DNA of 64,000 nt, from positions 91,033-155,032 of the forward strand of contig CAVPLU010000009.1 in the NCBI GenBank assembly GCA_963706285.1. Direction: 5' to 3'. Made by a program: the position numbers and the translations under genes. The notes below the pieces were generated by a model. It did no database searches. It was given only the letters and a program-made list of their open reading frames with translations, and had not been told where the DNA came from. This DNA is from Candidatus Bathyarchaeota archaeon (GTDB lineage: Archaea > Thermoproteota > Bathyarchaeia > 40CM-2-53-6). This document shows positions 30,296 to 48,151 of the stretch, piece after piece (within the stretch, counting starts at the first letter, position 1; every line of letters starts with the position of its first letter).

Positions 30296-30586
30296 TTGAA
30301 GGATGAGGAGAATAGAAAAGCTATTGACGTTTTCGAAAATCAGCTTGTTCCTAAGCATGAGATTGTGCCCAGGCGTGAGGCTGAGGAGCTGCTCGAACGT
30401 CTGCACATCAAGGCGCATCAACTGCCTTACCTAAGAGCTGATGATCCAGCCGCGCGACAGATAGGTGCCAAGCCGTGGGATGTAGTGAAGGTCACGCGTA
30501 AGAGTCCCACAGCCGGAGCGGTTGTAGTGTACAGGTACGTTATTGAGAGTTCAGCTGGAGGGGGAAAACCTGATCAGTCAAGTTGA
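30296..30586 (+). CDS. rpoH: RNA polymerase subunit H (Rpo5)
   Basis: LVPKHEI, QLP-x-x-x-x-x-DP, RKSPTAG-x-x-x-x-YR-x-V. Confidence 0.95.
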   Translation: MKDEENRKAIDVFENQLVPKHEIVPRREAEELLERLHIKAHQLPYLRADDPAARQIGAKPWDVVKVTRKSPTAGAVVVYRYVIESSAGGGKPDQSS

Positions 30587-33500
30587 ACCGCAGATGTGGG
30601 GACTGATCAAGGAATTCTTCCGCGAGAAGGGCCTTGTCAGGCAGCACATCGATTCATACAACGAATTCATTGAAACGGGATTACAGGCGATCATAGACGA
30701 GGTTGGATCAATCCCGATAGAGATCGAAGAGTATCCGTTGAAGATCAAGCTCGGGAAGATTGAGATCGGCACACCGAGGGTAACAGAGGTTGATGGATCT
30801 GAGAGGCCCATTTATCCTACGGAAGCTCGGGTACGCAATCTCACCTATGCCGCGCCATTGCACCTTGAAATGACGCCTGTTATCGGGGAACGTGAAGGTC
30901 AGACGGAGATCGTCTACATTGGGGACTTTCCCGTCATGCTTCGTTCGAAGATATGCCCTCTCTCGAGGCTGACTCCCGATGAGATGACCAGTATCGGCGA
31001 GGATCCCATTGATCCTGGCGGATACTTCGTCGTCAATGGTGCTGAACGTGTGGTGGTTGCGCTCGAGGATCTGGCAGCGAACAAGATTCTCGTTGACACA
31101 GAAAAGACGGGAGTCAACCCCGTCTACAAGGCCAAGATTTTCTCTACGACATTGGGTTTCCGGGCAAGAACTGAAGTCACCATGAAGTCCGACGGTGCGA
31201 TCTTTGTTATGGTTCCGGGGGTGCCTGCGGAGATTCCCTTGGTCGTGCTCATGAAAGCGCTTGGTATTCAGGAAGACTTGAAGATCGCCGAGCTGATCTC
31301 TGATGATGAGATCATCCAGAACCAATTGGAAGGTTCATTCGAGAAAGCGCAGGGCATCCTTTCGGTGAAGGATGCGCTCCTATATGTTGGTAATCGTCTC
31401 GCGCCAGGACAGGTTGAGGACTACCGTGCCAAGAAGGCTGAAACGGTTGTCGATCGTAACTTTCTTCCACATATTGGGCGAACGCCAGCTGAAAGGAAAG
31501 AGAAAGCGTATTTCCTCGCCGAGATCACGACAAGGATTATTGAGCTGAAGCTTGGCAGGCGGGGCCCAGACGACAAGGATCACTATGCGAACAAGCGACT
31601 CAAGCTTGCAGGAGCCTTGATGGGTGACCTCTTCAGAATCACATTTCGAAATCTCGTCCGTGATTTGAAGTATCAACTTGAGCGCATCACGATCAGAAGA
31701 CACCAAGAACTTTCGATTACGAACGCAATTAGGCCTGGCATAATCAGTGAACGAATACAGCACGCGGTTTCGACAGGTAACTGGGTCCGAGGAAGGGTTG
31801 GGGTAACACAACTTCTCGATCGAACGAACTTTTCCTCGACATTAAGCCACCTGAGGCGGCTTCAATCTCCCTTGAGCAGAAGCCAACCCAACTTGGAGGC
31901 GCGCGATCTGCATGCGACGCATTGGGGCAGACTATGCCCGAATGAAACCCCTGAAGGGTCGAATTGTGGTCTCGTGAAGAACTTGGCATTGTCTTCCATC
32001 CTGTCAACAGGGGTCGACTCAAGAGAGTTCGTGCTCAAGCTACGAAGGATAGGGGTCGTGCCAATTGGGGAGGCAGAGAGCAAGTCAGCAACTCCGAGTG
32101 TCATCGTCATAGTTGACGGCCTAATTGCAGGCGTCACGCGTGCACCTAACGAGCTTGTGCAGGAACTTGTACGTATGCGTCGCGCCGGCGAAATCAGCTC
32201 CGAAGTGAACGCCGCGTATTTCCCTCCAGAAAGAGAGACCGTGCGGGGATGCGTCTACGTGAATTGTGACGGCGGCAGAGTGCGGAGACCGCTAATCATA
32301 GTGGATGATGGCATTCCGAAACTGACGCGCGAACACGTGGAAGCCATTCAGAGAGGCGAAATGCGTTGGGAGGAACTCGTTGAGAAAGGGGTCATTGAGT
32401 ATCTAGACTCTGACGAGGAGGAGAGTGCTCTCGTGGCGCTCGATCTTTCCAAGGTCTCGAAGGATAGCACGCATCTGGAGCTTGCTTCTTACACAATGCT
32501 AGGCATCTGTGCTTCAGTAATCCCGTATTCTGAGCACAACCAGTCTCCAAGGAACGCCTATGAGTCAGCCATGGCGAAACAAGCGCTTGGAGTTTCCTGC
32601 ACCAACTTCTTCAACCGAGTCGATTCTCGATCACATCTATTGCACTACCCGCAGTTGCCTCTCGTTAGGACGAAACCAATGGAGGTCATTAACTACGATG
32701 ACAGACCTGCAGGCCAGAACTGTGTTTTGGCCGTACTTTCGTTCCAAGGCTACAACATGGAAGACGCCGTAGTCTTCAACCGATCATCTGTGGACCGTGG
32801 GTTTGGCCGTTCTACATTCTTCCGAATCTACGAAGGTGAATGTAGACAGTACCTCGGAGGGCTCCGCGACAAGTTCGAAATCCCCGAAGCAGGGACAAGA
32901 GGATACAGGGGCGACAGATACTATCGCTTTCTTGAGGAAGATGGAATTATCTCGGCTGAGGCGGACGTGAGCGGAAACACAGTTCTTGTTGGCAGAACAA
33001 GTCCTCCTCGGTTCTTAGAAGAGTACCGTGAATTCGAAGTTAAAGGACCCACAAAGCGTGACTCATCTGTGGGAATGCGTCCTTCAGAGGTCGGAGTAGT
33101 CGACACTATTTTCGTTACTGAATCAATCGAAGGCAGTAAGCTCGTGAAGGTGAAAGTCAGAGACACACGTGTTCCCGAACTTGGGGACAAGTTTGCCTCA
33201 AGGCACGGGCAGAAAGGCGTCATCGGCCTCCTTGTTCCACAGCAAGATATGCCCTTCACTCAGGATGGTGTCGTCCCAGATGTCATCATCAACCCTCATG
33301 CATTTCCGTCCCGTATGACGATCGGACAATTCGTGGAATCATTAGCTGGCAAAGTCGCTTCGTTGAGGGGGGAGCCAGTTGACGGGACTCCTTTCAGCAA
33401 CGAACGCCCAGAGCAACTTCGCGATACCTTGCTGAAGCTTGGATTCACTCAAAGCGGAAGCGAAGTTTTCTACAACGGTATTGACGGAAAGAAGTTTGTA

Positions 33501-33920
33501 GCCGATGTGTATGTTGGAGTCATATACTATCAGAAACTTCACCACATGGTTGCAGACAAGATGCACGCACGGGCACGCGGCCAAGTACAGATGCTGACAC
33601 GACAGCCAACCGAAGGAAGGGCCCGAGGAGGGGGCCTAAGATTCGGGGAGATGGAACGCGACTGTCTAATCGGACACGGAGCGTCTGCGCTGCTCAGAGA
33701 CAGACTCCTCGAAGAATCTGACAAGTACACCGTCATGGTCTGTGAAGTATGCGGCTTGCTCGCTTACCATGATATCAAACAGAACAAGTACGTGTGCCGT
33801 ATCTGCGGCGAGCGGGCGGTAATCTCCCCAGTCGCACTTTCTTACGCCTTCAAACTACTCCTTCAAGAATTGATGGCGCTCGGTGTGGCTCCCAGACTTA
33901 ACATTTCGGAGCGTGCATAA
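30570..33920 (+). CDS. rpoB: RNA polymerase subunit B (unsplit Rpo2); start CTG 30570 or ATG 30594
   Basis: GLVRQHIDSYN, ETPEG-x-NCGLVKN, GDKFASRHGQKG, GGLRFGEMERD, C-terminal Zn ribbon. Confidence 0.97.
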   Translation: MISQVEPQMWGLIKEFFREKGLVRQHIDSYNEFIETGLQAIIDEVGSIPIEIEEYPLKIKLGKIEIGTPRVTEVDGSERPIYPTEARVRNLTYAAPLHLEMTPVIGEREGQTEIVYIGDFPVMLRSKICPLSRLTPDEMTSIGEDPIDPGGYFVVNGAERVVVALEDLAANKILVDTEKTGVNPVYKAKIFSTTLGFRARTEVTMKSDGAIFVMVPGVPAEIPLVVLMKALGIQEDLKIAELISDDEIIQNQLEGSFEKAQGILSVKDALLYVGNRLAPGQVEDYRAKKAETVVDRNFLPHIGRTPAERKEKAYFLAEITTRIIELKLGRRGPDDKDHYANKRLKLAGALMGDLFRITFRNLVRDLKYQLERITIRRHQELSITNAIRPGIISERIQHAVSTGNWVRGRVGVTQLLDRTNFSSTLSHLRRLQSPLSRSQPNLEARDLHATHWGRLCPNETPEGSNCGLVKNLALSSILSTGVDSREFVLKLRRIGVVPIGEAESKSATPSVIVIVDGLIAGVTRAPNELVQELVRMRRAGEISSEVNAAYFPPERETVRGCVYVNCDGGRVRRPLIIVDDGIPKLTREHVEAIQRGEMRWEELVEKGVIEYLDSDEEESALVALDLSKVSKDSTHLELASYTMLGICASVIPYSEHNQSPRNAYESAMAKQALGVSCTNFFNRVDSRSHLLHYPQLPLVRTKPMEVINYDDRPAGQNCVLAVLSFQGYNMEDAVVFNRSSVDRGFGRSTFFRIYEGECRQYLGGLRDKFEIPEAGTRGYRGDRYYRFLEEDGIISAEADVSGNTVLVGRTSPPRFLEEYREFEVKGPTKRDSSVGMRPSEVGVVDTIFVTESIEGSKLVKVKVRDTRVPELGDKFASRHGQKGVIGLLVPQQDMPFTQDGVVPDVIINPHAFPSRMTIGQFVESLAGKVASLRGEPVDGTPFSNERPEQLRDTLLKLGFTQSGSEVFYNGIDGKKFVADVYVGVIYYQKLHHMVADKMHARARGQVQMLTRQPTEGRARGGGLRFGEMERDCLIGHGASALLRDRLLEESDKYTVMVCEVCGLLAYHDIKQNKYVCRICGERAVISPVALSYAFKLLLQELMALGVAPRLNISERA

Positions 33921-33921
33921 G

Positions 33922-36900
33922 ATGGCGATGTTGGAAGAAGCAACTAAGATCATCGGCAGCATCAGGTTCTCACTTCTTTCCCCGAATGAAATACGTCGCC
34001 TGTCAGCAGTTGAAGTTCAGACAGCGGACACATATGATGAAGACGGCGTCCCCATAGTATCAGGTCTAATGGACGGAAGATTGGGAACACTCGAACCTAG
34101 GCAGAAGTGCAAGACCTGTGGAAACACGGCTGTAAGTTGCCCAGGTCACTCCGGGCACATAGAACTTGCGGAGCCTGTGGTTCATGTGGCCTTCGCCAAA
34201 CTCATACACAAACTCCTGTCCATCACTTGTCGCAACTGCGGCAGGATACTCATGTCGAATGAGAGGATTGAGAACTACCAAGCAAGGATAGCGGAAGAAA
34301 AGAAACGCCTCAACGAGGTGCCCACGACTTTCTTCGACGCCATTATGAAGGACGCGAAGAAAGTTCAAGAGTGTCCACACTGCGGAACGCGACAACACAC
34401 AATCGAACATCAGAAACCCACAACGTTCATAGACGAGACCGGAGCGCGGCTCACGCCCAGCGCAATCAGAGAGATGCTTGAACGCATTCCTGATGATGAT
34501 CTTCGCATTGTGGGTATGGATCCAACCGCTGCAAGACCTGAATGGATGATCATGCAGGTCCTACCCGTGCCGCCAGTTACGGTGCGACCATCTATTACGC
34601 TCGAGTCAGGCATTCGATCAGAAGACGATCTGACTCACAAACTCGTTGACATAATTCGAATCAACCAGAAGCTGCATGAGGCACTCGAATCCGGCGTTCC
34701 GGTCAACATCATTCAAGAACTACATGACCTGCTTCAGTATCATGTTACTACGTACTTTGATAATGAAGTTTCCGGCCTGCCACCTGCTCGTCACCGATCA
34801 GGAAGAGCGTTGAGAACGATCAGTCAACGACTAAAGGGCAAGGAAGGCAGATTCCGAGGCAACCTGTCTGGAAAGCGAGTTGACTTCTCAGCTAGGACTG
34901 TAATTTCTCCTGACCCTAACCTAGACATCAGCGAGGTTGGCGTTCCAGTTGACATAGCCGCACGACTGACTATTCCAGAACGTGTTACACAATGGAACAT
35001 CGAAGAGATGAAACGGCTCATCAGAAACGGCCCTGACCAGTACCCAGGCGCTCTCTATATCGTGCGCCCGGACCAAAGGCGAGTCAGATTAGAGTTCGTT
35101 ACCGAACGAGATAGTCTCGCAGACGCAATCGAACCAAGTTTCGTCGTCGAACGCCACATCAGAGACGGAGATATTGTGCTCTTCAACAGACAACCCTCAC
35201 TTCACAGAATGTCAATCATGGCCCACACAGTTAGAGTACTTCCATACAAGACCTTCAGACTGAACCCATGCGTCTGCCCACCATACAACGCGGACTTTGA
35301 CGGCGATGAGATGAACCTGCATGTACCGCAGAGTGAGGAAGCGAGAACCGAAGCAAGGCTTCTCATGCAAGTACAGGATCAGATACTCTCTCCTCGCTAC
35401 GGAGGGCCAATCATCGGTGCTAAGACGGATCTTATCAGCGCGGCCTATCTGCTCACCCGCAAGTCAACAGCCCTCACAAAGGATGAGGTTTGCAGACTCC
35501 TTGCAGCTGCCGGGTACGCGGGCGAAGTTCCCGAACCAGCGATCAAGCGTCCTGTCGAACTCTGGACCGGGAAACAGATCTTCAGCCTCTTCCTGCCGAA
35601 GGGTTTCAGCTTCACCACCAGATCCAGTATGGTGACAAAGGATGACAAAGAACACGTCATAATACGTAACGGAATACTCGAAGAAGGAGTCATCGACAAG
35701 AACTCGATCGGCGCCGAACGCTCGGAGACTCTCTTCCACCGAATTGTGAAGGATCAAGGATCTGAGACCGGGCGTCAGTTTCTCAATCACCTCGCGAAGT
35801 TGCTGGACCGTTTCGTCCTGATGAAAGGTTTCTCATACTCACTGAAGGAACTTGACGTACTTCCGAGTGTCAAGGAAAAGATTGACAAGGTCATAAGGAA
35901 AGCCGAAGAGCGTGTCTACGCACTTATCGAGAGCTACAACCAAGGAACTCTTGATCGACTGCCGGGCCAGTCCCTTGCGGAATCACTCGAGATTCGAATA
36001 ATGGACGAACTCTCCAAAGCTCGTGACGTTGCTGGCGAGCTTGCCGACGCGAACTTGGACGAAAGAAACAGCGGTGTAATCATGACTAGAACAGGAGCAA
36101 GAGGTTCGTCGCTGAATATTGCGCAGATGATAGCATCCGTGGGTCAGCAGTCAATTCGTGGTCAAAGAATCCGCAGAGGATACAGAGACAGAGTGCTGTC
36201 ATTCTTCCGACCTGGAGACGCAGGTCCTGAAGCAAGAGGTTTCGTCTACGCCTCGTATCGTGACGGTCTCAACCCGATCGAGTTCTTCTTCCATGCAATG
36301 GGTGGACGTGAAGGACTAGTGGACACTGCAGTCAGGACCCAACAAAGCGGATACATGCAAAGAAGACTGATCAATGCGCTTGAACATCTCAGAGTGGAGT
36401 ACGACTCAACCGTGAGGGACTCGCGAGGAGATATCATTCAATTCAGATACGGAGAAGACGGTGTGGACACAGCGAAGAGCGATCACGGCAAGGCAGTAAA
36501 CTCTGAACGCCTAATCGAACGTGTAAGGCTCACCGCGGACAAAGGCGCGAAGGCCACCAACAAGTACGTCGAGACCAAGGTTCGAGAAGTCACCGACCGA
36601 CTTTCTCCCCTCCTAGCAGATGAGTTGAAGCGAGATCTCCTGAAGGCTAAAATGTCACGGCGCGGCGTCGACGAAGCCGTTGGCCAAGCCGTCGAAAACT
36701 ACGGCAGATCGCTCATCGAACCCGGCGAAGCAGCAGGAATTGTATCAGCTCAATCCATCGGAGAGCCTGGCACGCAGATGACACTGAGAACCTTCCACTT
36801 TGCAGGAGTGAGGGAGCAGAACGTCACCCTTGGCCTTCCTAGACTGATTGAGATTGTCGACGCAAGGAAGATCCCGTCGACGCCGACGATGACGGTGTTC

Positions 36901-37707
36901 CTTGACGAGAAACACAGGACGAGCAAGGAGAAGGCCGAGGAAGTCGCCACCCTCCTCACGCATACTACACTCGCAGACATCGCCTCTAGTATCGAGTCAG
37001 ACATAACTAGGATGAGGATCGTGGTTAAGCTTGACACTGCAGCCATGCGCGAGAAGTCCGTCACGATGAAAGACATGAAATTAGCGATCCAAGTACCTCG
37101 AGGAGAAACGAAGATCGAAAAAGACGAAGTCGAAATCACCACTCAGGACATGGACATTCCACAGTTCAGGCGTCTCGAGTCCCGTGTCGCCGGAATGCAC
37201 GTGAAGGGAATCCCCGCGGTGAAGCGAGCTCTTGTCATGGAGGAAAACCACGAGTGGATCATCAGAACAGAGGGATCGAACCTCGAACTTGCACTCACGA
37301 CACCAGGTATCGATCCGACCAGAACAGTATCCAACAACATGCACGAGGTGGCAGCTGTGCTCGGAATCGAAGCAGCGCGCAACGTAATAGTCAAAGAGGC
37401 GAAAGCCGTCCTCGAAGAGCAAGGTCTTGACGTCGACATAAGACATGTGATGCTCGTCGCAGATGCGATGACCGCGTCAGGCGAAGTCCTTCAAGTAGGC
37501 AGGCATGGTGTAAGCGGCGAGAAATCGAGCACACTTGCGAAAGCAGCCTTTGAGATCACGATCCCAACGATCGTTGACGCGGCCGTTCGCGGAACAAAGG
37601 ATCACCTGCGTGGAGTCGCGGAGAACGTGATAGTCGGACAACAGGTTCCAATGGGTACAGGCCTCATCGAGGTTTTCATGGCAATGTCCGAGAGGAGGGA
37701 GAAATAG
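33922..37707 (+). CDS. rpoA: RNA polymerase largest subunit, fused A'+A'' (Rpo1)
   Basis: NADFDGDEMN and GGREGLVDTA in the same ORF as AQSIGEPGTQMTL and AAFE...ENVIVGQ. Confidence 0.97.
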   Translation: MAMLEEATKIIGSIRFSLLSPNEIRRLSAVEVQTADTYDEDGVPIVSGLMDGRLGTLEPRQKCKTCGNTAVSCPGHSGHIELAEPVVHVAFAKLIHKLLSITCRNCGRILMSNERIENYQARIAEEKKRLNEVPTTFFDAIMKDAKKVQECPHCGTRQHTIEHQKPTTFIDETGARLTPSAIREMLERIPDDDLRIVGMDPTAARPEWMIMQVLPVPPVTVRPSITLESGIRSEDDLTHKLVDIIRINQKLHEALESGVPVNIIQELHDLLQYHVTTYFDNEVSGLPPARHRSGRALRTISQRLKGKEGRFRGNLSGKRVDFSARTVISPDPNLDISEVGVPVDIAARLTIPERVTQWNIEEMKRLIRNGPDQYPGALYIVRPDQRRVRLEFVTERDSLADAIEPSFVVERHIRDGDIVLFNRQPSLHRMSIMAHTVRVLPYKTFRLNPCVCPPYNADFDGDEMNLHVPQSEEARTEARLLMQVQDQILSPRYGGPIIGAKTDLISAAYLLTRKSTALTKDEVCRLLAAAGYAGEVPEPAIKRPVELWTGKQIFSLFLPKGFSFTTRSSMVTKDDKEHVIIRNGILEEGVIDKNSIGAERSETLFHRIVKDQGSETGRQFLNHLAKLLDRFVLMKGFSYSLKELDVLPSVKEKIDKVIRKAEERVYALIESYNQGTLDRLPGQSLAESLEIRIMDELSKARDVAGELADANLDERNSGVIMTRTGARGSSLNIAQMIASVGQQSIRGQRIRRGYRDRVLSFFRPGDAGPEARGFVYASYRDGLNPIEFFFHAMGGREGLVDTAVRTQQSGYMQRRLINALEHLRVEYDSTVRDSRGDIIQFRYGEDGVDTAKSDHGKAVNSERLIERVRLTADKGAKATNKYVETKVREVTDRLSPLLADELKRDLLKAKMSRRGVDEAVGQAVENYGRSLIEPGEAAGIVSAQSIGEPGTQMTLRTFHFAGVREQNVTLGLPRLIEIVDARKIPSTPTMTVFLDEKHRTSKEKAEEVATLLTHTTLADIASSIESDITRMRIVVKLDTAAMREKSVTMKDMKLAIQVPRGETKIEKDEVEITTQDMDIPQFRRLESRVAGMHVKGIPAVKRALVMEENHEWIIRTEGSNLELALTTPGIDPTRTVSNNMHEVAAVLGIEAARNVIVKEAKAVLEEQGLDVDIRHVMLVADAMTASGEVLQVGRHGVSGEKSSTLAKAAFEITIPTIVDAAVRGTKDHLRGVAENVIVGQQVPMGTGLIEVFMAMSERREK

Positions 37708-38006
37708 TGGACCTTAACAAACAGATCAACATGGCCGTCAAAACCGGGAAGATTAAGCTAGGCTGTAGTGAGGCAACAGATGCTGCCAAGACAGGAAAGG
37801 CACGTCTGATCATCATCGCCTCAAACTGTCCCGAGCCACAGAAATCTAGCATACTCTACAACGCAAAACTCTCGGAGGTTCCCGTATACGTCTACTCGGG
37901 CACCAGCATGGACTTGAGCGCTGCATGTGAAAAGCCATTTCTAGTCGCCGCTCTTACAGTGAAGGAACCTGGCGACTCTGAAATCCTAAAGTTGGCTGAA
38001 ACCTGA
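37707..38006 (+). CDS. rpl30e: 50S ribosomal protein L30e
   Basis: AVKTGK-x-x-LG, IIASNCP, KPF, PGDS-x-I. Confidence 0.95.
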   Translation: MDLNKQINMAVKTGKIKLGCSEATDAAKTGKARLIIIASNCPEPQKSSILYNAKLSEVPVYVYSGTSMDLSAACEKPFLVAALTVKEPGDSEILKLAET

Positions 38007-38008
38007 AG

Positions 38009-38446
38009 ATGTCCTCAACAAAGATCCGCTTAGGCAGCGATGAGATACGTTACATTGCCCTGTTTGAGAACATAACAGGCGCAACCGCAAATGACTGCCT
38101 AATCGACTCCTTGAGCGACCGGATCATATTCATTGCCAAACCAGGACAGATGGGCCTGGCGATCGGAAAAGCAGGGAAGAACATCAACACTCTCAGGAGA
38201 ATGACCGGCAAACCTGTCGAAGTCGTTGAGGCATCGGACAGCGTAGAGGGCTTGATAAGGAACTCTCTCGCGCCGGCGAAGATCAAAGAGATTCGAGTCA
38301 CCGAACGTCCTGACAAGAAGATAGTGGTCGTGGAAGTTGACCCAAGAGACAAAGCCTTGGCAATCGGAAAGAACGGTAGAACAATCGACAAGACTCGTAT
38401 ACTAGCCAAGAGATACTTCCAAGTCGATCACGTGCAAGTTGTCTAG
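38009..38446 (+). CDS. nusA: Archaeal NusA (two KH domains)
   Basis: FE-x-ITGA-x-x-x-DC; GLAIGK-x-G and LAIGKNG KH loops. Confidence 0.94.
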   Translation: MSSTKIRLGSDEIRYIALFENITGATANDCLIDSLSDRIIFIAKPGQMGLAIGKAGKNINTLRRMTGKPVEVVEASDSVEGLIRNSLAPAKIKEIRVTERPDKKIVVVEVDPRDKALAIGKNGRTIDKTRILAKRYFQVDHVQVV

Positions 38447-42300: not shown

Positions 42301-44565
42301 CTACGAAAGCGAGTACATTACTCTCTTTTCGATCGTGCGCTTCTTGCCCTCAGGCCACAACGCGACAGGTATGTAGGTAGATGATGACCGTCCATATTGT
42401 CCAACATTATCCGATGCGCACGAACTGCAACTTGTAACCAACCCTGCGATAACTCGATTACAGTTCCTGCAAAACGAGTAGGCTCTGGAATAAGTTATGA
42501 ACCGGATGCCGCTGGCAGCTGCTTCGTGCGAAACCGACAAGAGTGCTTCCGTGGTTGCCTTCGAATCCACAGAAATCACGGCCAAATGGCCTCCCGGAGT
42601 CAGAGTCTGAAGCATCCCTTCGATAGCTAACCTTTCACTGAGAGGAACCTTTGATGTCAAAGGAACACCTGGCATATCTGTGTAGAATGGGGAGTTCCTG
42701 CCCCCTTGGGCAGACACCGTGCTCTTGCCGTAGTGTTCGACATCGAGTTCGGCCAGTCTTGAGGCCGCTTCATCTCCGGGTCTTTCTGAAAGTGCCACAC
42801 GCATTCCTAGGTTCTCTGACGCAGCTTCGGTTTGCCTTCGCAACTCTTGGAGGATCTTCTCTCCGAAAACTAGTGAATCTTTCTTCAACTCGCTACCGGT
42901 ATGGGCAAGGCAAGCCTCGTTCAGTCCCAAGATCGCCACTGCATAGATAGCTACTTTCTCACGGAAGTACGGAGTACCTTGACCTGATCCGAAGAGCAGC
43001 GGAAGTGCAGTTTGTTTCAGTCTATCGACCATGAACTTCCGCTTGATCTTGAAGGCCTCTAATGCCAAAGTAAGCGAATCTGTCATTGATTTGAAGAATC
43101 TATCGTCGTCTCTTCGTGCTTCATAAGCAAGTCTAGGCAAGTTGAGAAAGACCGTTGTCATACAACCTGTCCTATAGCAGTCTGACTCCCATTGCTTACT
43201 CCAATCATCCGAAAGCCTAAGGCCCGTGGCTGTGTAGCAGTCGGGTGAGCCGTCTCGAAGAAACGCAATGTACGGTAGCGTCCGAGATGCCGCTAGTTCG
43301 TGAGTTTTGAGAACGCGAGATCGAGTTTCATCTTTTCTCTCGGCCGAGTCCCGAATCTTGAAGATCAACCTGGGGCTCGCCAAAAGGTTGGTCAATGCTT
43401 CTCGTGAAATCGCATCTAGTAGGGCATCAAGAACGACCCTCGTCTCCTCGTGGTAGTCACCGTAGACTCCCATCGTTCTACCTCCAGGCCCGATGGCCTC
43501 AACACTCTCTAGGAACTCAGGCACTCCATATTCGAGCCCAAGAGAAAGTCCGGGCTGAGGGGGGCCCAGTGGCAGGTCGCGTTCTATGGATAAAAGAAAT
43601 AGCGCAAGCGATTCCCTGACCGAGTCCTCAGAGGTATTCTTAACGTAGGGCGCTAGGAAGACATTGAATAGGTCAAAACCTTGTTCGCCTGATATCTCTG
43701 TAATTCCGAGACGGTAGACGCTCTGGATCAATGCCAAAGCTGCGTTGAAGCTTTGTGGTGGTTTCAATCCAACAAGCCCGTTCTTCAGGAAATATCGGAG
43801 ATCATGTTGGATTTCGCTCGGCTTTAGGGGCCAGCTCTCAAGGTCGGATATGTGGATTTGGCCTGAGATGTGCGCGTCTGCGATCTCACGTGGCAAGCAC
43901 TCCAGCAGGACATACTCTCCCAAGACAGACGCTCCTGCGGTCCTCTGAACGTAGTCAGTGGTCAACCCGAGTTCTCCGGTCGAATGGAGAAGCTGAGTGA
44001 CATCGTATACCGGCATTCCAACACGCGTCAGCTTATGCCTGTATTCTTCGAGTTTCTTCTCGATAAGAATTGCATTAACAAACTCGCGGATCAAGGCCGA
44101 AGTCAGGTACGAAGTTCTAAGCTTGATTAGCCGGTCCTCTGCTTCTGCCGCTATTTCGTCCGCAAGTTCCTGGGGAACGCCTGCTTCAACAACCAGTGAC
44201 TTCGCTATCTTGCTTCTGTGGAAGTCCTCGATCGCTAGCCGCGAGGTTCTAACGAACAATTTGCCGCGTTTCACACTGACGTATTCCTCTAGATCTCTCG
44301 CAAAATGTATCACCATATCTCCCAGTTCAGTTATCTCGTACTTCTTTGCGCGTTTATCCGAACTGATTAGTCCGGCTTGAGTCAGGCTTCTAAGGTGGTA
44401 TACGAATTTTCCAGCGTCACGGACAGGATCCAACTTCAGAGCCGACATGATCTCGGTATATGGCAACGCGCCTTTCGTGGAGAGAAGTCGGAGCACTTGC
44501 ATACGTAGCGGAGCGGAGGCAGCGTCGAATATGGTCGCTCCCAGTTTCTCGAAGGAACGCAGCAT
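42301..44565 (-). CDS. wHTH + ATP-cone + class III RNR (NrdD)-fold protein with degenerate catalytic residues
   Basis: N-terminal ArsR-like HTH (R-x-x-VL-x-LL...YHL-x-x-L-x-x-AGL); ATP cone (VRTS...F-x-R-x-KI...LIRE-x-V); NrdD motifs AH-x-x-G-x-IH-x-x-DL, FNVFLAPY, NLPRLA, GGH and C-terminal CxxC...CxxC. Confidence 0.85.
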   Translation of the reverse strand: MLRSFEKLGATIFDAASAPLRMQVLRLLSTKGALPYTEIMSALKLDPVRDAGKFVYHLRSLTQAGLISSDKRAKKYEITELGDMVIHFARDLEEYVSVKRGKLFVRTSRLAIEDFHRSKIAKSLVVEAGVPQELADEIAAEAEDRLIKLRTSYLTSALIREFVNAILIEKKLEEYRHKLTRVGMPVYDVTQLLHSTGELGLTTDYVQRTAGASVLGEYVLLECLPREIADAHISGQIHISDLESWPLKPSEIQHDLRYFLKNGLVGLKPPQSFNAALALIQSVYRLGITEISGEQGFDLFNVFLAPYVKNTSEDSVRESLALFLLSIERDLPLGPPQPGLSLGLEYGVPEFLESVEAIGPGGRTMGVYGDYHEETRVVLDALLDAISREALTNLLASPRLIFKIRDSAERKDETRSRVLKTHELAASRTLPYIAFLRDGSPDCYTATGLRLSDDWSKQWESDCYRTGCMTTVFLNLPRLAYEARRDDDRFFKSMTDSLTLALEAFKIKRKFMVDRLKQTALPLLFGSGQGTPYFREKVAIYAVAILGLNEACLAHTGSELKKDSLVFGEKILQELRRQTEAASENLGMRVALSERPGDEAASRLAELDVEHYGKSTVSAQGGRNSPFYTDMPGVPLTSKVPLSERLAIEGMLQTLTPGGHLAVISVDSKATTEALLSVSHEAAASGIRFITYSRAYSFCRNCNRVIAGLVTSCSSCASDNVGQYGRSSSTYIPVALWPEGKKRTIEKRVMYSLS

Positions 44566-44583
44566 GCTGCAGACATTGTGCGG

Positions 44584-44647
44584 AGTACTCTAAAAAAGTG
44601 TACTGATACTTCTGATCGCTAGATTGGATTTCCAGAACCCTGGAGAT
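44584..44647. promoter_or_regulatory. Two imperfect palindromes in the divergent promoter between the NrdD-like gene and the phosphorylase
   Basis: AGTACTCT-AAAAA-AGTGTACT (44584-44604) and ATTTCCAG-AACC-CTGGAGAT (44628-44647), each with 7/8-bp arms. Confidence 0.4.
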
Positions 44648-44756
44648 CGGTCATGTGCGGTGAATCCAACTGCACAGGTCGAGTTATTCTAAGAACGCGA
44701 GATGTCGACGAACGCTTTTATCCCGTAGCTTTCCACGGCTAAGTAGGGGTCGAAGA

Positions 44757-45590
44757 ATGAACGAAAGACTAGTTTCCGCTGCGCGGCCTCAATCAGCTGA
44801 AGGAGTTCAGTATCACATTTCAGCGAAGCGAGGACAGATAGGTGACTATGTCTTTCTGCCTGGTGATCCGGATCGCGTGCCGAAGATAGCTAAGTTCTGG
44901 GACTCAGCTCACGAAGTATCTTCTCACAGGGAATACCGAATATGGTCTGGAACGGTCAGTGGAACGATGGTGTCGGCCTGTTCTACGGGCATTGGCTGTC
45001 CAGCCACGGCCATTGCAATCGAGGAGCTGGGCAGAATCGGCGCAAAGACATTCATTCGAGTTGGTTCCTGTGGATCACTGCTGCCCGACCTGGAATGTGG
45101 AGACCTGGCAATATCCACAGCCGCCGTTCGTCTCGACGGCACCGGAGCGCAATATGTCACCGCTGCATATCCCGCCGCTGCAAGTCACGAAGTGGTCCTC
45201 GCACTTATCGAGGCTGCTGAGAAACTGGGCAAGAAGTACAGAGCAGGGTATACCGCGTCAACCGACAGCTTCTATGCGGGTCAAGGTCGGCCGGGCATTG
45301 AAGATTATCTGCCCACAGATGCTGAGACGCTCATTGAGAGGCTTCGAAGACAGCGTGTGATCACAATGGAAATGGAAGCTTCTGTGATCTTCACCTTGGC
45401 GGGCATCTATGGATTCCGCAGCGGCTGCGTACTCGCGGTGTACGCGAACAGAGCCACAAACAAGTTTGAAGTCAAAGGGGAAGAGGACGCATGCAGAGTT
45501 GCAGTGGAAGCGGTTCGAATCCTAATCAAATGGGACTTGGATCGTCAAAGAGCCGGGAAAAGATACTGGTCACCAAGCCTCAGTTACTGA
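44757..45590 (+). CDS. udp: Nucleoside (uridine) phosphorylase
   Basis: QYH, LPGDP-x-R, STGIG-x-P-x-x-AI-x-x-EEL, IRVGSCG, SFY-x-GQ-x-R, MEME. Confidence 0.9.
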   Translation: MNERLVSAARPQSAEGVQYHISAKRGQIGDYVFLPGDPDRVPKIAKFWDSAHEVSSHREYRIWSGTVSGTMVSACSTGIGCPATAIAIEELGRIGAKTFIRVGSCGSLLPDLECGDLAISTAAVRLDGTGAQYVTAAYPAAASHEVVLALIEAAEKLGKKYRAGYTASTDSFYAGQGRPGIEDYLPTDAETLIERLRRQRVITMEMEASVIFTLAGIYGFRSGCVLAVYANRATNKFEVKGEEDACRVAVEAVRILIKWDLDRQRAGKRYWSPSLSY

Positions 45591-46043: not shown

Positions 46044-46718
46044 ATGCAACTTGGTGAACTGCATCTCGTAGAAGATATCAGAGTGAACGATAGTGATGCG
46101 CTCATCATTGTGGACTTGCAGAACGACTTCATGCCGTCTGGTGCTCTCGCCGTCAAGAGTGGAGATGAAATCGTTGGACCAATCAATCGCCTCGCTGAAA
46201 GCTTCCACAATCAAGGTAACCTTGTTGTAATGACTCAGGATTGGCATCCTGCAGGCCACCTTTCTTTTGCGAGCAGTCACGGGATGAAACCATACGATCC
46301 CTACGAGTCCGATGGGATAGGGCCGATTCTCTGGCCGGATCATTGTGTTCAAGGTTCACTGGGCGCTGAGTTTCATCCCCACATCCAGGTGAAATTTGCC
46401 AATGCAATTATCCGGAAAGGATACCATGTGGGAGTGGACAGCTATTCAACATTCATCGAGAATGACAAGAAAACCCCTACAGGTCTCTCCGGCTACCTCA
46501 GAACATTGGGGAAGAAGCGAATCTTTCTCTGCGGACTTGCGCTCGACTATTGCGTCTACCATTCTGCACTGGATGGTGTGGATCTAGGGTTTGAGGTAGT
46601 TGTGCTAGTCGACCTCTCAAAGGCAATCAACTCACCATCAGGGCGACTTTCCGAGGCGTTGGACAGCATGACTAAGAGACACGTTCAATTCACTAGATCA
46701 ACCGAGATCGTGGTTTGA
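46044..46718 (+). CDS. pncA: Nicotinamidase/pyrazinamidase
   Basis: VDLQNDF, QDWHP-x-x-H-x-SF, WP-x-HCVQ, RKG, DSYS, GLA-x-DYCV. Confidence 0.93.
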   Translation: MQLGELHLVEDIRVNDSDALIIVDLQNDFMPSGALAVKSGDEIVGPINRLAESFHNQGNLVVMTQDWHPAGHLSFASSHGMKPYDPYESDGIGPILWPDHCVQGSLGAEFHPHIQVKFANAIIRKGYHVGVDSYSTFIENDKKTPTGLSGYLRTLGKKRIFLCGLALDYCVYHSALDGVDLGFEVVVLVDLSKAINSPSGRLSEALDSMTKRHVQFTRSTEIVV

Positions 46719-46861
46719 AGTCACGTACACATCGCTGTCATAGTCTTGTTGATCTTTGCACTACAGAATCTGGCGCCGAGCACCAGAATCCAAGAATTTT
46801 TGGGCGGCCCGAGGAACTAATAAATAAGGCGCGTGGTGGGGTTAGGGGCCGCGTGACTTTC

Positions 46862-47140
46862 ATGAAGTTTCCGAAGGCAATCACAACCTACTGCCCCAAA
46901 TGCAAGGGCCACACAGAACACGGAGTGTCAATCTACAAGAAGGGCAAAGAGCGCACGCTCTCAGCTGGCGCTAGGCGTCACGAACGCGAGAAGCATGGGT
47001 ACGGCGGTCAGAAGTGGCCTACACTCAAACGAACAGCCAAGACTACGAAGAAGCAAGTGCTCCGCCTCACATGTAGGAAATGCAATCAAATCGTCCCAAG
47101 ACTCGGGATACGCCTTCGCAAACTCGAAGTTGGAGCGTGA
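46862..47140 (+). CDS. rpl44e: 50S ribosomal protein L44e
   Basis: TYCP-x-C-x-x-HT-x-H, GYGGQ, K-x-TKK-x-x-L-x-x-x-C-x-x-C. Confidence 0.95.
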   Translation: MKFPKAITTYCPKCKGHTEHGVSIYKKGKERTLSAGARRHEREKHGYGGQKWPTLKRTAKTTKKQVLRLTCRKCNQIVPRLGIRLRKLEVGA

Positions 47141-47148
47141 AATCGCAC

Positions 47149-47343
47149 ATGGTCAAGAAAGATCCGATTCCCAAGCCTCGCAGCAATTTTCTGAAAGTCA
47201 AATGCACAAAGTGCGAGCATGAGCAGATAGTCTTTGATCGAGCTGCCGTGCAGGTCAAGTGCGAGAAGTGTGACGATGTGCTCCTTGAAGCACAAGGTGG
47301 AAAGGCCAAAGTAAGAGGCGAGGTCACGCAAGTCCTTGGCTAG
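47149..47343 (+). CDS. rps27e: 30S ribosomal protein S27e
   Basis: PRS-x-FL-x-VKC-x-x-C-x-x-EQ-x-VF, C-x-x-C, GGK. Confidence 0.95.
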   Translation: MVKKDPIPKPRSNFLKVKCTKCEHEQIVFDRAAVQVKCEKCDDVLLEAQGGKAKVRGEVTQVLG

Positions 47344-47371
47344 ACCTCTCTGCGATGGGAGTCTAAGCGTC

Positions 47372-48151
47372 ATGTCTGTTCCTAATTACCCCGAAGTCGG
47401 GGATCTCGCTATTGCTACTGTGAAGCGGGTCGTCGACTACGGCGGCTATGTCAGGTTGGATGAGTACGAAGGGATTGAAGGGCTAATCCACATCTCTGAG
47501 ATCTCGACCACTTGGGTCAAAAACATCCGTGAACATGTTCGTGAGGGGCAGAAGCTAGTTCTCAAGGTCTTGCGTGTGGATCGCGAACGCGCCCAAGTTG
47601 ACCTGTCACTTAGGCGGGTTACGGGTCGAGAAAAGACGGACAAGATGCTTGAGTGGAAGAGAAGTAAGAAAGCTGATTCGATTGTCAAAGGTGCGGGTGA
47701 GCGTCTGAAAGCAGATGCTGAAACGACCGAGAAGATGCGTCTCCTTCTGTACGAGAAGTTGGAGAACCCGTTTGAGACGTTTCAGGAGGCCGTTGAGGAA
47801 GGCGAGGGCGTCTTCGCGAAACTGGAGATAGCGCCAGAATGGGCAACCGCGCTTACTGAGGTATCGCGAAGCAAGGTGAAACTGGAGAAGGCCTCTCTTA
47901 CTGCTACAATCGAACTCACCTGCAGAGCTCCAGAGGGAATCGAAGCAATCCGGACTGCACTAGTCAATGCGAAGAAAGTTAAGAAGCCAAGAGGAGCGAC
48001 CGTTCGGATCTACGCGATTGGTGCGCCGAGGTACAGGATCGAGGCCACAACGCGAGAGTACTCAGAGGCTGAGGCGTTGTTGAACTCAGCCGTTGAGGAA
48101 GCCACATCCACGTTGAAGGGTTTCGGCGGCGAAGGGCGCAGAGCTAGTTGA
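47372..48151 (+). CDS. eif2a: Translation initiation factor aIF2 alpha
   Basis: YPE-x-G, LDEY, HISEI, DLSLRRV, GAPRY. Confidence 0.95.
   Translation: MSVPNYPEVGDLAIATVKRVVDYGGYVRLDEYEGIEGLIHISEISTTWVKNIREHVREGQKLVLKVLRVDRERAQVDLSLRRVTGREKTDKMLEWKRSKKADSIVKGAGERLKADAETTEKMRLLLYEKLENPFETFQEAVEEGEGVFAKLEIAPEWATALTEVSRSKVKLEKASLTATIELTCRAPEGIEAIRTALVNAKKVKKPRGATVRIYAIGAPRYRIEATTREYSEAEALLNSAVEEATSTLKGFGGEGRRAS

Follow-up and report, generated by a model that had tools for sequence, protein, structure and literature searches.

A class III ribonucleotide reductase pseudoenzyme fused to a winged helix-turn-helix in Bathyarchaeia: a probable nucleotide-responsive transcription regulator

A gene of Bathyarchaeia encodes a class III ribonucleotide reductase (RNR) homolog that has lost its catalytic residues and has an ArsR-like winged helix-turn-helix (wHTH) at its N-terminus. 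The product probably regulates transcription of nucleotide-supply genes in response to nucleotides, in the manner of NrdR but with an independent origin, from the reductase itself. The gene is located at 42301..44565 (minus strand) of a 64,000-nucleotide stretch of Candidatus Bathyarchaeota archaeon DNA (assembly GCA_963706285.1, contig CAVPLU010000009.1, positions 91,033 to 155,032), here termed the window. The 754-residue protein, delineated by open reading frame (ORF) translation, Pfam and NCBIfam, includes: (i) a wHTH, (ii) an ATP-cone, (iii) a catalytically dead NrdD body, (iv) a Zn ribbon and (v) a remnant of the glycyl-radical loop. That the protein is no ribonucleotide reductase and that the gene is not in decay can be taken as certain. 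Judged by its sequence, the gene is an old paralog of the archaeal ATP-cone-bearing class III RNR, now a pseudoenzyme with an acquired wHTH.

Domain architecture and fold

The ORF is uninterrupted by internal stops, and its translation together with Pfam recovers the architecture proposed in an earlier, sequence-only reading of this DNA, namely an ArsR-like wHTH, an ATP-cone, an NrdD body and an intact Zn site within 754 residues. All features of the gene are on the minus strand. The ArsR/SmtB-like wHTH (residues 11-87; 44305..44535) matches DUF7347 at 31.6 bits (cutoff 27.6). HTH_20 (residues 18-67; 26.1 bits, cutoff 27) and HTH_45 are slightly below their cutoffs, the ArsR/SmtB HTH model NF033788 (E 3.8e-7, 29.8 bits) is short of its cutoff of 55, and the top Protein Data Bank (PDB) sequence match of the domain, the ArsR-family regulator 8qkf, is weak (E 0.17). 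The N-terminal 90 residues include the A-x-P-x-R ... H-L-x-x-L-x-x-A-G-L pattern of ArsR/SmtB proteins, with a probable recognition helix near R-D-A-G-K-F-V-Y-H-L-R-S-L.

The wHTH is followed by an ATP-cone (residues 105-175; 44041..44253; PF03477, 25.9 bits, cutoff 25.8) of the V-R-T-S type found in active archaeal NrdDs and by a cone-to-core linker, Y-R-H-K-L-T-R-V-G-M-P-V-Y-D-V (residues 175-189; 43999..44043), which is identified by its conservation and by alignment to canonical enzymes. The core is an NrdD-like ten-stranded barrel devoid of catalytic residues (residues 213-698; 42472..43929), as defined by PF13597 and Foldseek. The NRDD model (PF13597) spans residues 213-751 (E 3.8e-71), and the NrdD equivalog model TIGR02487 scores 261.2 bits, short of its cutoff of 326.35. 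Other enzyme families appear in the Pfam and NCBIfam scans only as weak matches far below cutoffs (the YjjI glycyl-radical enzyme and, in the cone region, phosphoglycerate kinase).

An AlphaFold2 (AF2) model, generated from a 50-sequence family alignment, has a mean predicted local distance difference test score (pLDDT) of 88.8 and a predicted template modeling score (pTM) of 0.80, with low confidence chiefly in the 97-110 linker. The best Foldseek matches of the model are all class III RNRs (9dca, 8p2s, 4u3e and 1hk8; E 1e-28 to 1e-20) from Streptococcus thermophilus, Prevotella copri, Thermotoga maritima and phage T4, with target-normalized template modeling (TM) scores of 0.62-0.75 and 15-18% identity, and class I RNRs and other glycyl-radical enzymes are far weaker (about 1e-8). 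Superposition on the T4, T. maritima and P. copri enzymes shows a matching fold (TM up to 0.75). A two-copy complex prediction for core residues 213-700 scores 0.00 and weighs neither way.

Loss of the catalytic residues

Residues were assigned from HMMER alignments to solved NrdDs (T4 and P. copri 8p23). The finger-loop cysteine that forms the thiyl radical occurs in an MGCR or MCCR motif, as given in part of PMC9669993, and the roles of the HxHD motif, the NxN flap and the beta-A cysteine (Cys171) are those of P. copri NrdD described in part of PMC11226230. The finger-loop remnant of the archaeal protein is A-T-G-L-R-L (residues 446-451; 43213..43230), in which Leu449 is opposite the cysteine of T4 PMGCR. 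The beta-A strand is K-P-S-E-I-Q-H-D-L (residues 248-256; 43798..43824), in which Glu251, by HMMER alignment to 8p23 and T4, occupies the position of the second catalytic cysteine. Both losses had been predicted from the sequence, as had the positions of these motifs, of the radical-loop remnant and of CRNC and CSSC in the Zn site, all of which check out.

The loss of the radical glycine also stands, with a correction of its register. The glycyl-radical-loop remnant is Y-G-R-S-S-S-T-Y (residues 724-731; 42373..42396), and R-I-T-G-Y of P. copri is aligned opposite R-S-S-S-T (residues 726-730). Thus, the glycine position is Ser729 and the following tyrosine is Thr730; the relevant position is not the residue before Tyr731 as had been proposed. 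Of the substrate-binding elements, HxHD, which in part of PMC11226230 is described as holding the substrate triphosphate, is reduced to H-I-S-D (residues 238-241; 43843..43854; assigned by column tallies), and the NxN flap, which closes over the substrate in the same account, is missing; the earlier reading had noted neither of these two losses. Canonical NrdDs have this flap after the cone-to-core linker as K(E/D)NANL. Further degraded motifs noted at the outset (GCM, PGD and YTDM) are seen as RTGCM, RPGDE and FYTDM in place of RTGN, TPAES and YYTNS. The Zn ribbon is retained as CxxC...CxxC (residues 699-716; 42418..42471), with C699, C702, C713 and C716 (CRNC and CSSC) invariant in the 50-sequence alignment.

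These losses are shared by the family. An exhaustive phmmer run against 1.84 billion cluster representatives returned 2144 matches at E ≤ 0.001 (420 at E ≤ 1e-30); 270 fetched proteins were anchored to the query by HMMER, and the 41 without finger-loop coverage were dropped. Tallies were made on 174 wHTH proteins or on 56 wHTH representatives from clustering at 50% identity (55 for some features), and compared with 18 canonical representatives, which were chosen by the finger-loop cysteine and PAE and then scored on the other features. The thiyl column is cysteine in 1 of the 174 proteins and 1 of the 56 representatives, the latter a truncated sequence of 621 residues, and the beta-A column is cysteine in 1 of the 174. 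The canonical radical column is glycine in 7 of the 56 representatives, none of which has the finger-loop cysteine; RxxGY and this cysteine never occur together in the wHTH family, and the radical-loop remnant is conserved within clades. No core column has cysteine in at least 30% of representatives, and the cysteines of PDCY and RTGC, once considered as possible substitutes at the active site, are found in only 4 and 9 of the 56. None of the 55 wHTH representatives has the [DE]NAN form of the flap, as against 16 of 18 canonical ones, and the second histidine of HxHD, present in 17 of 18 canonical forms, is outside the six commonest residues at that column in the 55 wHTH forms. Retained at similar rates in both groups are the non-catalytic NrdD residues H232, G235, H254-D255, N301, P306, Y368, E374 and N475-P477-R478. 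The Zn cysteines are present in 162 of 174 wHTH proteins, the remaining 12 being gaps.

Selection was estimated from the window sequence and seven orthologs (73-97% protein identity, all 2262 nucleotides and gapless) as the Nei-Gojobori median ratio of nonsynonymous to synonymous substitution (omega) over 28 pairs, limited to those with a synonymous divergence (dS) of 0.05-2.5 (16-22 pairs per domain). Median omega is 0.034 for the wHTH, 0.018 for the cone and linker (the lowest of the domains), 0.081 for the NrdD core and 0.096 for the Zn ribbon and loop. The values are rough because dS is near saturation (about 1.3-1.7), yet they are far below 1 in all domains. Every domain is, therefore, under strong purifying selection (omega about 0.02-0.10). 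Private decay, which the sequence-only reading had named as a refuting condition, and indel artefact, which that reading had already discounted, are rejected by the family-wide column tallies and the omega values.

Conservation of the wHTH and ATP-cone

Among 50 sequences of the family, H57 of the wHTH is invariant and G52, F54, Y56, L58 and L61 are at least 90% conserved; V105, R106, F115, I120 and R160 of the cone and R176, R181, G183 and P185 of the linker are likewise invariant. The cone was compared with those of four neighboring canonical NrdDs, two canonical representatives and the NrdJ of the same genome. The family pattern, V-R-T-S ... E-x-F ... K-I ... Y-L-T-A-P-L-I-R-E ... T-R-L-G-x-P-V-x-D-V, is that of the six canonical NrdD cones, while the NrdJ cone is more divergent. 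The pattern shared with active NrdDs indicates that the cone is the enzyme's own and is not degenerate. No other part of the protein is as conserved as the cone, and divergence from the canonical enzymes begins right after it, where K(E/D)NANL is absent.

A stand-alone wHTH and cone family was considered and rejected. The 84 short matches to residues 1-212 are scattered in length (67-399 residues), mostly fall in clusters of few members and are in several cases labeled partial. As these look like fragments, the NrdD body seems to be obligatory.

Distribution and relation to genuine ribonucleotide reductases

In contigs from one genome per species, 28 loci of the gene were collected (44-97% identity), nearly all labeled Bathyarchaeia and two in bacteria-labeled bins. 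A sample of 301 genomes from the window's class gives a match at E ≤ 1e-10 in 278, and in 148 of the 151 of high quality, a count that includes canonical NrdDs; 147 of the 150 matches listed start at or before query residue 25 and, thus, include the wHTH. Families f22 and f19 have weak matches only, and the one f22 genome examined matches through a canonical NrdD. More distant wHTH-bearing clusters bear the source labels of Thorarchaeota, Nitrososphaerota/Thaumarchaeota and Culexarchaeum. The distant members are sometimes named 'ArsR family transcriptional regulator' by NCBI, and the closer members are named 'anaerobic ribonucleoside-triphosphate reductase' in databases, to which JGI occasionally appends '/predicted transcriptional regulator'.

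The window's genome (G000; 2.13 Mb, 21 contigs, 89% complete) has no other NRDD match than this gene. The presence of another active RNR, raised as a check beforehand, is borne out by a class II NrdJ that bears an ATP-cone too (TIGR02504, 717.7 bits, cutoff 399.95). No NrdG (TIGR02495, TIGR02491) scores above cutoff anywhere in this genome, which extends the earlier statement that none is adjacent; weak radical-SAM matches are all off the window's contig. Occurrence of the gene is independent of NrdG. Among 101 genomes of the class that are at least 90% complete, 66 have NrdG above cutoff, but none does in families f1 (the window's; 0 of 10), f4 (0 of 6) and f14 (0 of 8), and the wHTH gene is found at E ≤ 1e-120 in each of the 19 other NrdG-negative genomes listed. 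The gene also coexists with genuine NrdD: an intact enzyme (with the cysteine, TPAE, YTNS and RVxGY) and the dead wHTH form are found together in four of five genomes examined, with PF13597 scores of 480-660 bits for the intact enzyme versus 200-260 bits for the wHTH form of the same genomes.

An unrooted FastTree of the core (486 columns) was built from 110 of the 151 sequences P0001-P0151 with at least 80% core coverage. A split with support of 0.995 places 50 of 51 wHTH-labeled sequences on one side (the exception is P0109) and all canonical forms on the other. The wHTH side also holds 12 sequences with no detected wHTH, most of which are truncated at the N-terminus.

Other unusual forms were noted among the matches. 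A second, apparently dead type of NrdD (P0063, P0064, P0069, P0076, P0097, P0118, P0146 and P0126) has an NRDD body with no finger-loop cysteine, ends before the glycyl-radical domain and has no HTH; seven of the eight have two ATP-cone stretches and P0126 has one. These proteins nest on the canonical side of the core tree and, thus, look like an independent catalytic loss. Many intact archaeal NrdDs are 1000-1700 residues long (e.g., P0046, P0048 and P0082), with large, intein-like insertions at the beta-A cysteine and finger loop; the wHTH forms among the matches, of about 750 residues, have no such insertions. One Bathyarchaeial contig (L038) carries two tandem wHTH-NrdD-like copies (714 and 700 residues). 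In L042 and L043 (metagenome-assembled genomes named MFD...bin), the gene is split into two to three pieces; frameshift errors or true pseudogenes may account for this.

Genomic context

The wider context was analyzed in a second set of 28 loci, composed of the window, seven earlier loci and 20 newly fetched ones from different families of the class. An intact cone-bearing nrdD is directly downstream on the same strand in six loci from four families, and pyrB follows at a distance of a few genes in 16 of the 28 and pyrI in 12. Among the 20 newly fetched loci, 13 have nrdD and/or pyrB within six genes. In three of the six nrdD loci, a glutaredoxin-like gene lies between the dead and live nrdD; the intervening ORF of these loci (L053, L054 and L055, all family f32) encodes 101 residues with PF00462 and weak, sub-cutoff NrdH/YruB-like matches, and may be a reductant of the adjacent NrdD.

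In the window, the gene is divergent from a uridine-phosphorylase-like nucleoside phosphorylase (Udp; 44757..45590, plus strand; PF01048, E 2.9e-38), which scores 271.6 bits with the uridine phosphorylase model TIGR01718, slightly below the cutoff of 280.3. Beyond it is pncA (46044-46718; NF008623, 204.6 bits, cutoff 174). Both neighbors were correctly recognized in the sequence-only reading; the divergent phosphorylase is found only in the close clade and is a candidate target there alone. Seven of the 28 loci from one-genome-per-species contigs share the arrangement, all at least 76% identical to the window's protein. In seven loci of the close clade, the gene is followed by two BPD_transp_2 permeases, after which come a double ATP-binding cassette (ABC) ATPase (in six of these loci) and a Bmp/PnrA-like binding protein; by sequence, this cluster is a PnrA-type nucleoside ABC importer. 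The nrdD and pyrBI genes are the wider and more telling context.

The remaining surroundings are housekeeping ORFs. Upstream (30543-38446) are ORFs of 1125, 1274, 99 and 145 residues; downstream (46715-48151), the products of three ORFs were taken, by eye, for aIF2-alpha and the ribosomal proteins L44e and S27e. An acylphosphatase and an HflX-type GTPase are among the scanned neighbors.

Promoter region and RNA

A TATA-like box (a T-rich run and A on the gene's strand) is located about 25 nucleotides before the ATG (44590..44599, minus strand), is kept in all eight aligned orthologous intergenic regions and belongs to a probable leaderless promoter of the gene. A repeat search of the divergent intergenic region found one 11-nucleotide direct repeat beside the Udp TATA box and no inverted repeat. 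Of seven sequencing runs listed, two contained a small share of the words, and four were compared in detail. One rRNA-depleted library yielded five short contigs on the gene (163-271 nucleotides, about 92-98% alike) and one on Udp, and three further contigs came from a library that is probably DNA. As these contigs derive from a relative and DNA carry-over is possible, transcription is not shown by these data.

Proposed function and alternatives

With the catalytic residues lost, a DNA-binding domain gained and the ATP-cone kept, the most likely role of the protein is nucleotide sensing and gene control. In the proposed mechanism, the ATP-cone, and possibly other nucleotide sites that survive in the barrel, would read the ATP/dATP or deoxynucleoside triphosphate (dNTP) state. 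The NrdD body would pass this state on as a change of conformation or oligomer, and the wHTH would bind or release the promoters of nrdD (where present), of pyrBI and of nucleoside salvage and uptake genes. Which ligand is bound, which genes are targets, whether control is positive or negative, and DNA binding itself are inferred. A fuller version of the mechanism is offered tentatively, in which the transcription factor might reuse the whole of RNR allostery: the cone would read ATP versus dATP, a surviving specificity site at the interface of the dimer would sense which dNTP is in excess, and the barrel would set the occupancy of nrd, pyr and salvage promoters. The landmarks of the specificity site in P. 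copri are Glu290, Asn298 and loop 2, as given in part of PMC11226230. By spacing and conservation, Glu374 is a candidate for the Mg-binding glutamate of this site.

Several observations weigh against a role as transcription regulator of nucleotide supply. Survival of the specificity site is putative, as the HMMER alignment to 8p23 does not include that segment. The wHTH scores are modest, with one Pfam family above cutoff, HTH_20 and the ArsR model below, and the PDB match at E 0.17. No operator was found: the eight aligned intergenic regions keep only two TATA/BRE blocks, and k-mer enrichment in 24 promoters (28 minus four near-duplicates) finds only TATA-like (TTTAAA-type) words to be significant. 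CTAG words are beside the TATA boxes in 14 of the 24 promoters versus a background of 27% (uncorrected p about 0.001), an enrichment that is post hoc and not significant after correction for the 3744 words tested. The context is also uneven; 7 of the 20 newly fetched loci have neither nrdD nor pyrB within six genes, the pyrB neighborhood is convergent rather than operonic and could be inherited synteny, and the neighborhood counts are descriptive rather than independent because the loci are related. Finally, catalytic loss is not perfectly uniform, given the 7 of 56 representatives with glycine at the radical column and the finger-loop cysteine of locus L055.

The family member of L055 (genome G268) has a T-S-T-G-C-R finger loop, lacks the Gly-Tyr and the beta-A cysteine, and may be a relic or reversion. 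Examples of the CTAG words are ACTAG, CTAGAC and the inverted pairs AGACT...AGTCT, which are found in the promoters of L053, L054, L055, L070, L035, L065, L067 and L019 and at 44760-44775 of the window.

The modest wHTH scores and the missing operator motif would also suit a protein-level regulator or nucleotide buffer, in which the dead body pairs with or titrates NrdD, NrdJ or another enzyme, or simply binds nucleotides, and the wHTH serves protein contacts or non-specific nucleic acid binding. NrdDs are dimeric, so heterodimers with a live paralog are conceivable where both exist. However, the gene is retained in genomes with no detected NrdD or NrdG, that of the window included, and so pairing with NrdD does not account for it in general. 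Few parts of the protein are, moreover, as conserved as the putative recognition helix (H57 invariant, omega 0.034), and distant members are labeled ArsR-family regulators by the NCBI pipeline itself. This alternative is considered rather unlikely. It is likewise improbable that the protein is a bifunctional trigger enzyme, the barrel of which has a new, non-radical activity on a nucleotide or related metabolite that the wHTH couples to gene control. Such an activity would account for the constraint on the core (omega 0.081), for the polar residues kept in common with NrdD (H254-D255, N301, Y368, E374 and N475-P-R) and for the strongly conserved, family-specific linker residues R176, R181, G183 and P185 at the would-be substrate flap. 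By contrast, the grip on the substrate triphosphate is gone (the second histidine and the aspartate of HxHD, and the NxN flap), the scans give no hint of a second catalytic family, and the retained polar residues are equally conserved in true NrdDs and, thus, are more likely structural or allosteric.

That the protein is a working class III RNR by means of other residues, or the product of private decay or sequencing artefact, is hardly credible and, as far as sequence can go, is already refuted. The database name of anaerobic ribonucleoside-triphosphate reductase, the intact Zn ribbon and the overall fold speak for such an enzyme, and the finger-loop cysteine of the T. maritima NrdD crystal is off the loop tip (reported in part of PMC9669993), so loop alignments are to be read with caution. 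Against this, no core cysteine is conserved and the Gly-Tyr, beta-A cysteine, HxHD and NxN are all gone, the genome has no activase above cutoff, and TIGR02487 is below its cutoff. The same substitutions extend across hundreds of genomes with omega below 0.1, while true NrdD paralogs of the same genomes retain every motif.

Comparison with known systems

NrdR is a bacterial repressor of RNR genes with a Zn ribbon and an ATP-cone, in which the nucleotide state of the cone governs DNA binding. The mechanism is described in part of PMC12051234. The archaeal protein is similar to NrdR in that an ATP-cone is joined to a DNA-binding domain and, presumably by analogy, the ATP/dATP state of the cone would decide DNA binding. 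NrdR is often encoded beside nrd genes and binds operators (NrdR boxes) at their promoters. The archaeal gene immediately precedes nrdD in 6 of the 28 loci analyzed for context, and the promoter comparisons found no conserved operator. The two differ in that NrdR binds DNA by its Zn ribbon whereas the archaeal protein has an ArsR-like wHTH, a cone derived from that of NrdD itself, an obligatory dead reductase body of 540 residues and an archaeal distribution. No NrdR model is among the NCBIfam matches of the protein at E ≤ 0.1.

Canonical archaeal NrdD, which has an N-terminal ATP-cone and a double-cysteine finger loop, shares the fold, cone type, cone-core linker, Zn ribbon and the non-catalytic motifs AH.SG, QHD, FLAPY and NLPR with the wHTH form. 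The wHTH form differs from it by the absence of both catalytic cysteines, Gly-Tyr, the second histidine and aspartate of HxHD, the NxN flap and TPAES/YTNS, by the additional wHTH, by its occurrence where no NrdG is found and by its placement on the opposite side of the 0.995 split. ArsR/SmtB regulators have a similar wHTH pattern; their sensor is a metal site in the dimer, in contrast to the cone and dead reductase of the archaeal protein.

Betaherpesvirus M45/UL45 proteins are inactive homologs of the class I RNR large subunit that target host cell-death signaling and are not known to carry a DNA-binding domain. The parallel is one of an RNR large-subunit pseudoenzyme put to a new role other than catalysis. 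The archaeal protein would belong with the already known ATP-cone or enzyme-derived one-component regulators, as a novel form.

Significance

To our knowledge, NrdR is essentially bacterial and the gene-level control of archaeal dNTP supply is largely open. Searches of open-access papers and bioRxiv preprints (supplements excluded) brought up no account of an HTH-ATP-cone-NrdD protein or of a class III RNR pseudoenzyme, nor any paper on DUF7347, and the RNR phylogeny papers (including PMC9669993), in the parts available, say nothing of an HTH, of transcription or of inactive class III forms. The protein described here is a concrete and directly testable candidate for the control of archaeal dNTP genes, present in most Bathyarchaeia genomes searched and in other archaeal lineages. 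As a class III RNR pseudoenzyme it would be without precedent, and few examples of a whole enzyme converted to a sensor domain would be as clear; in some genomes, the live and dead paralogs are adjacent. Annotation of the gene as NrdD leads metabolic reconstructions to credit an anaerobic dNTP route to Bathyarchaeia genomes that, like the one examined here, have only the B12-dependent NrdJ. If the fuller version of the mechanism is true, the protein would be the missing archaeal counterpart of NrdR and the first instance in which multi-site enzyme allostery is reused wholesale for gene control.

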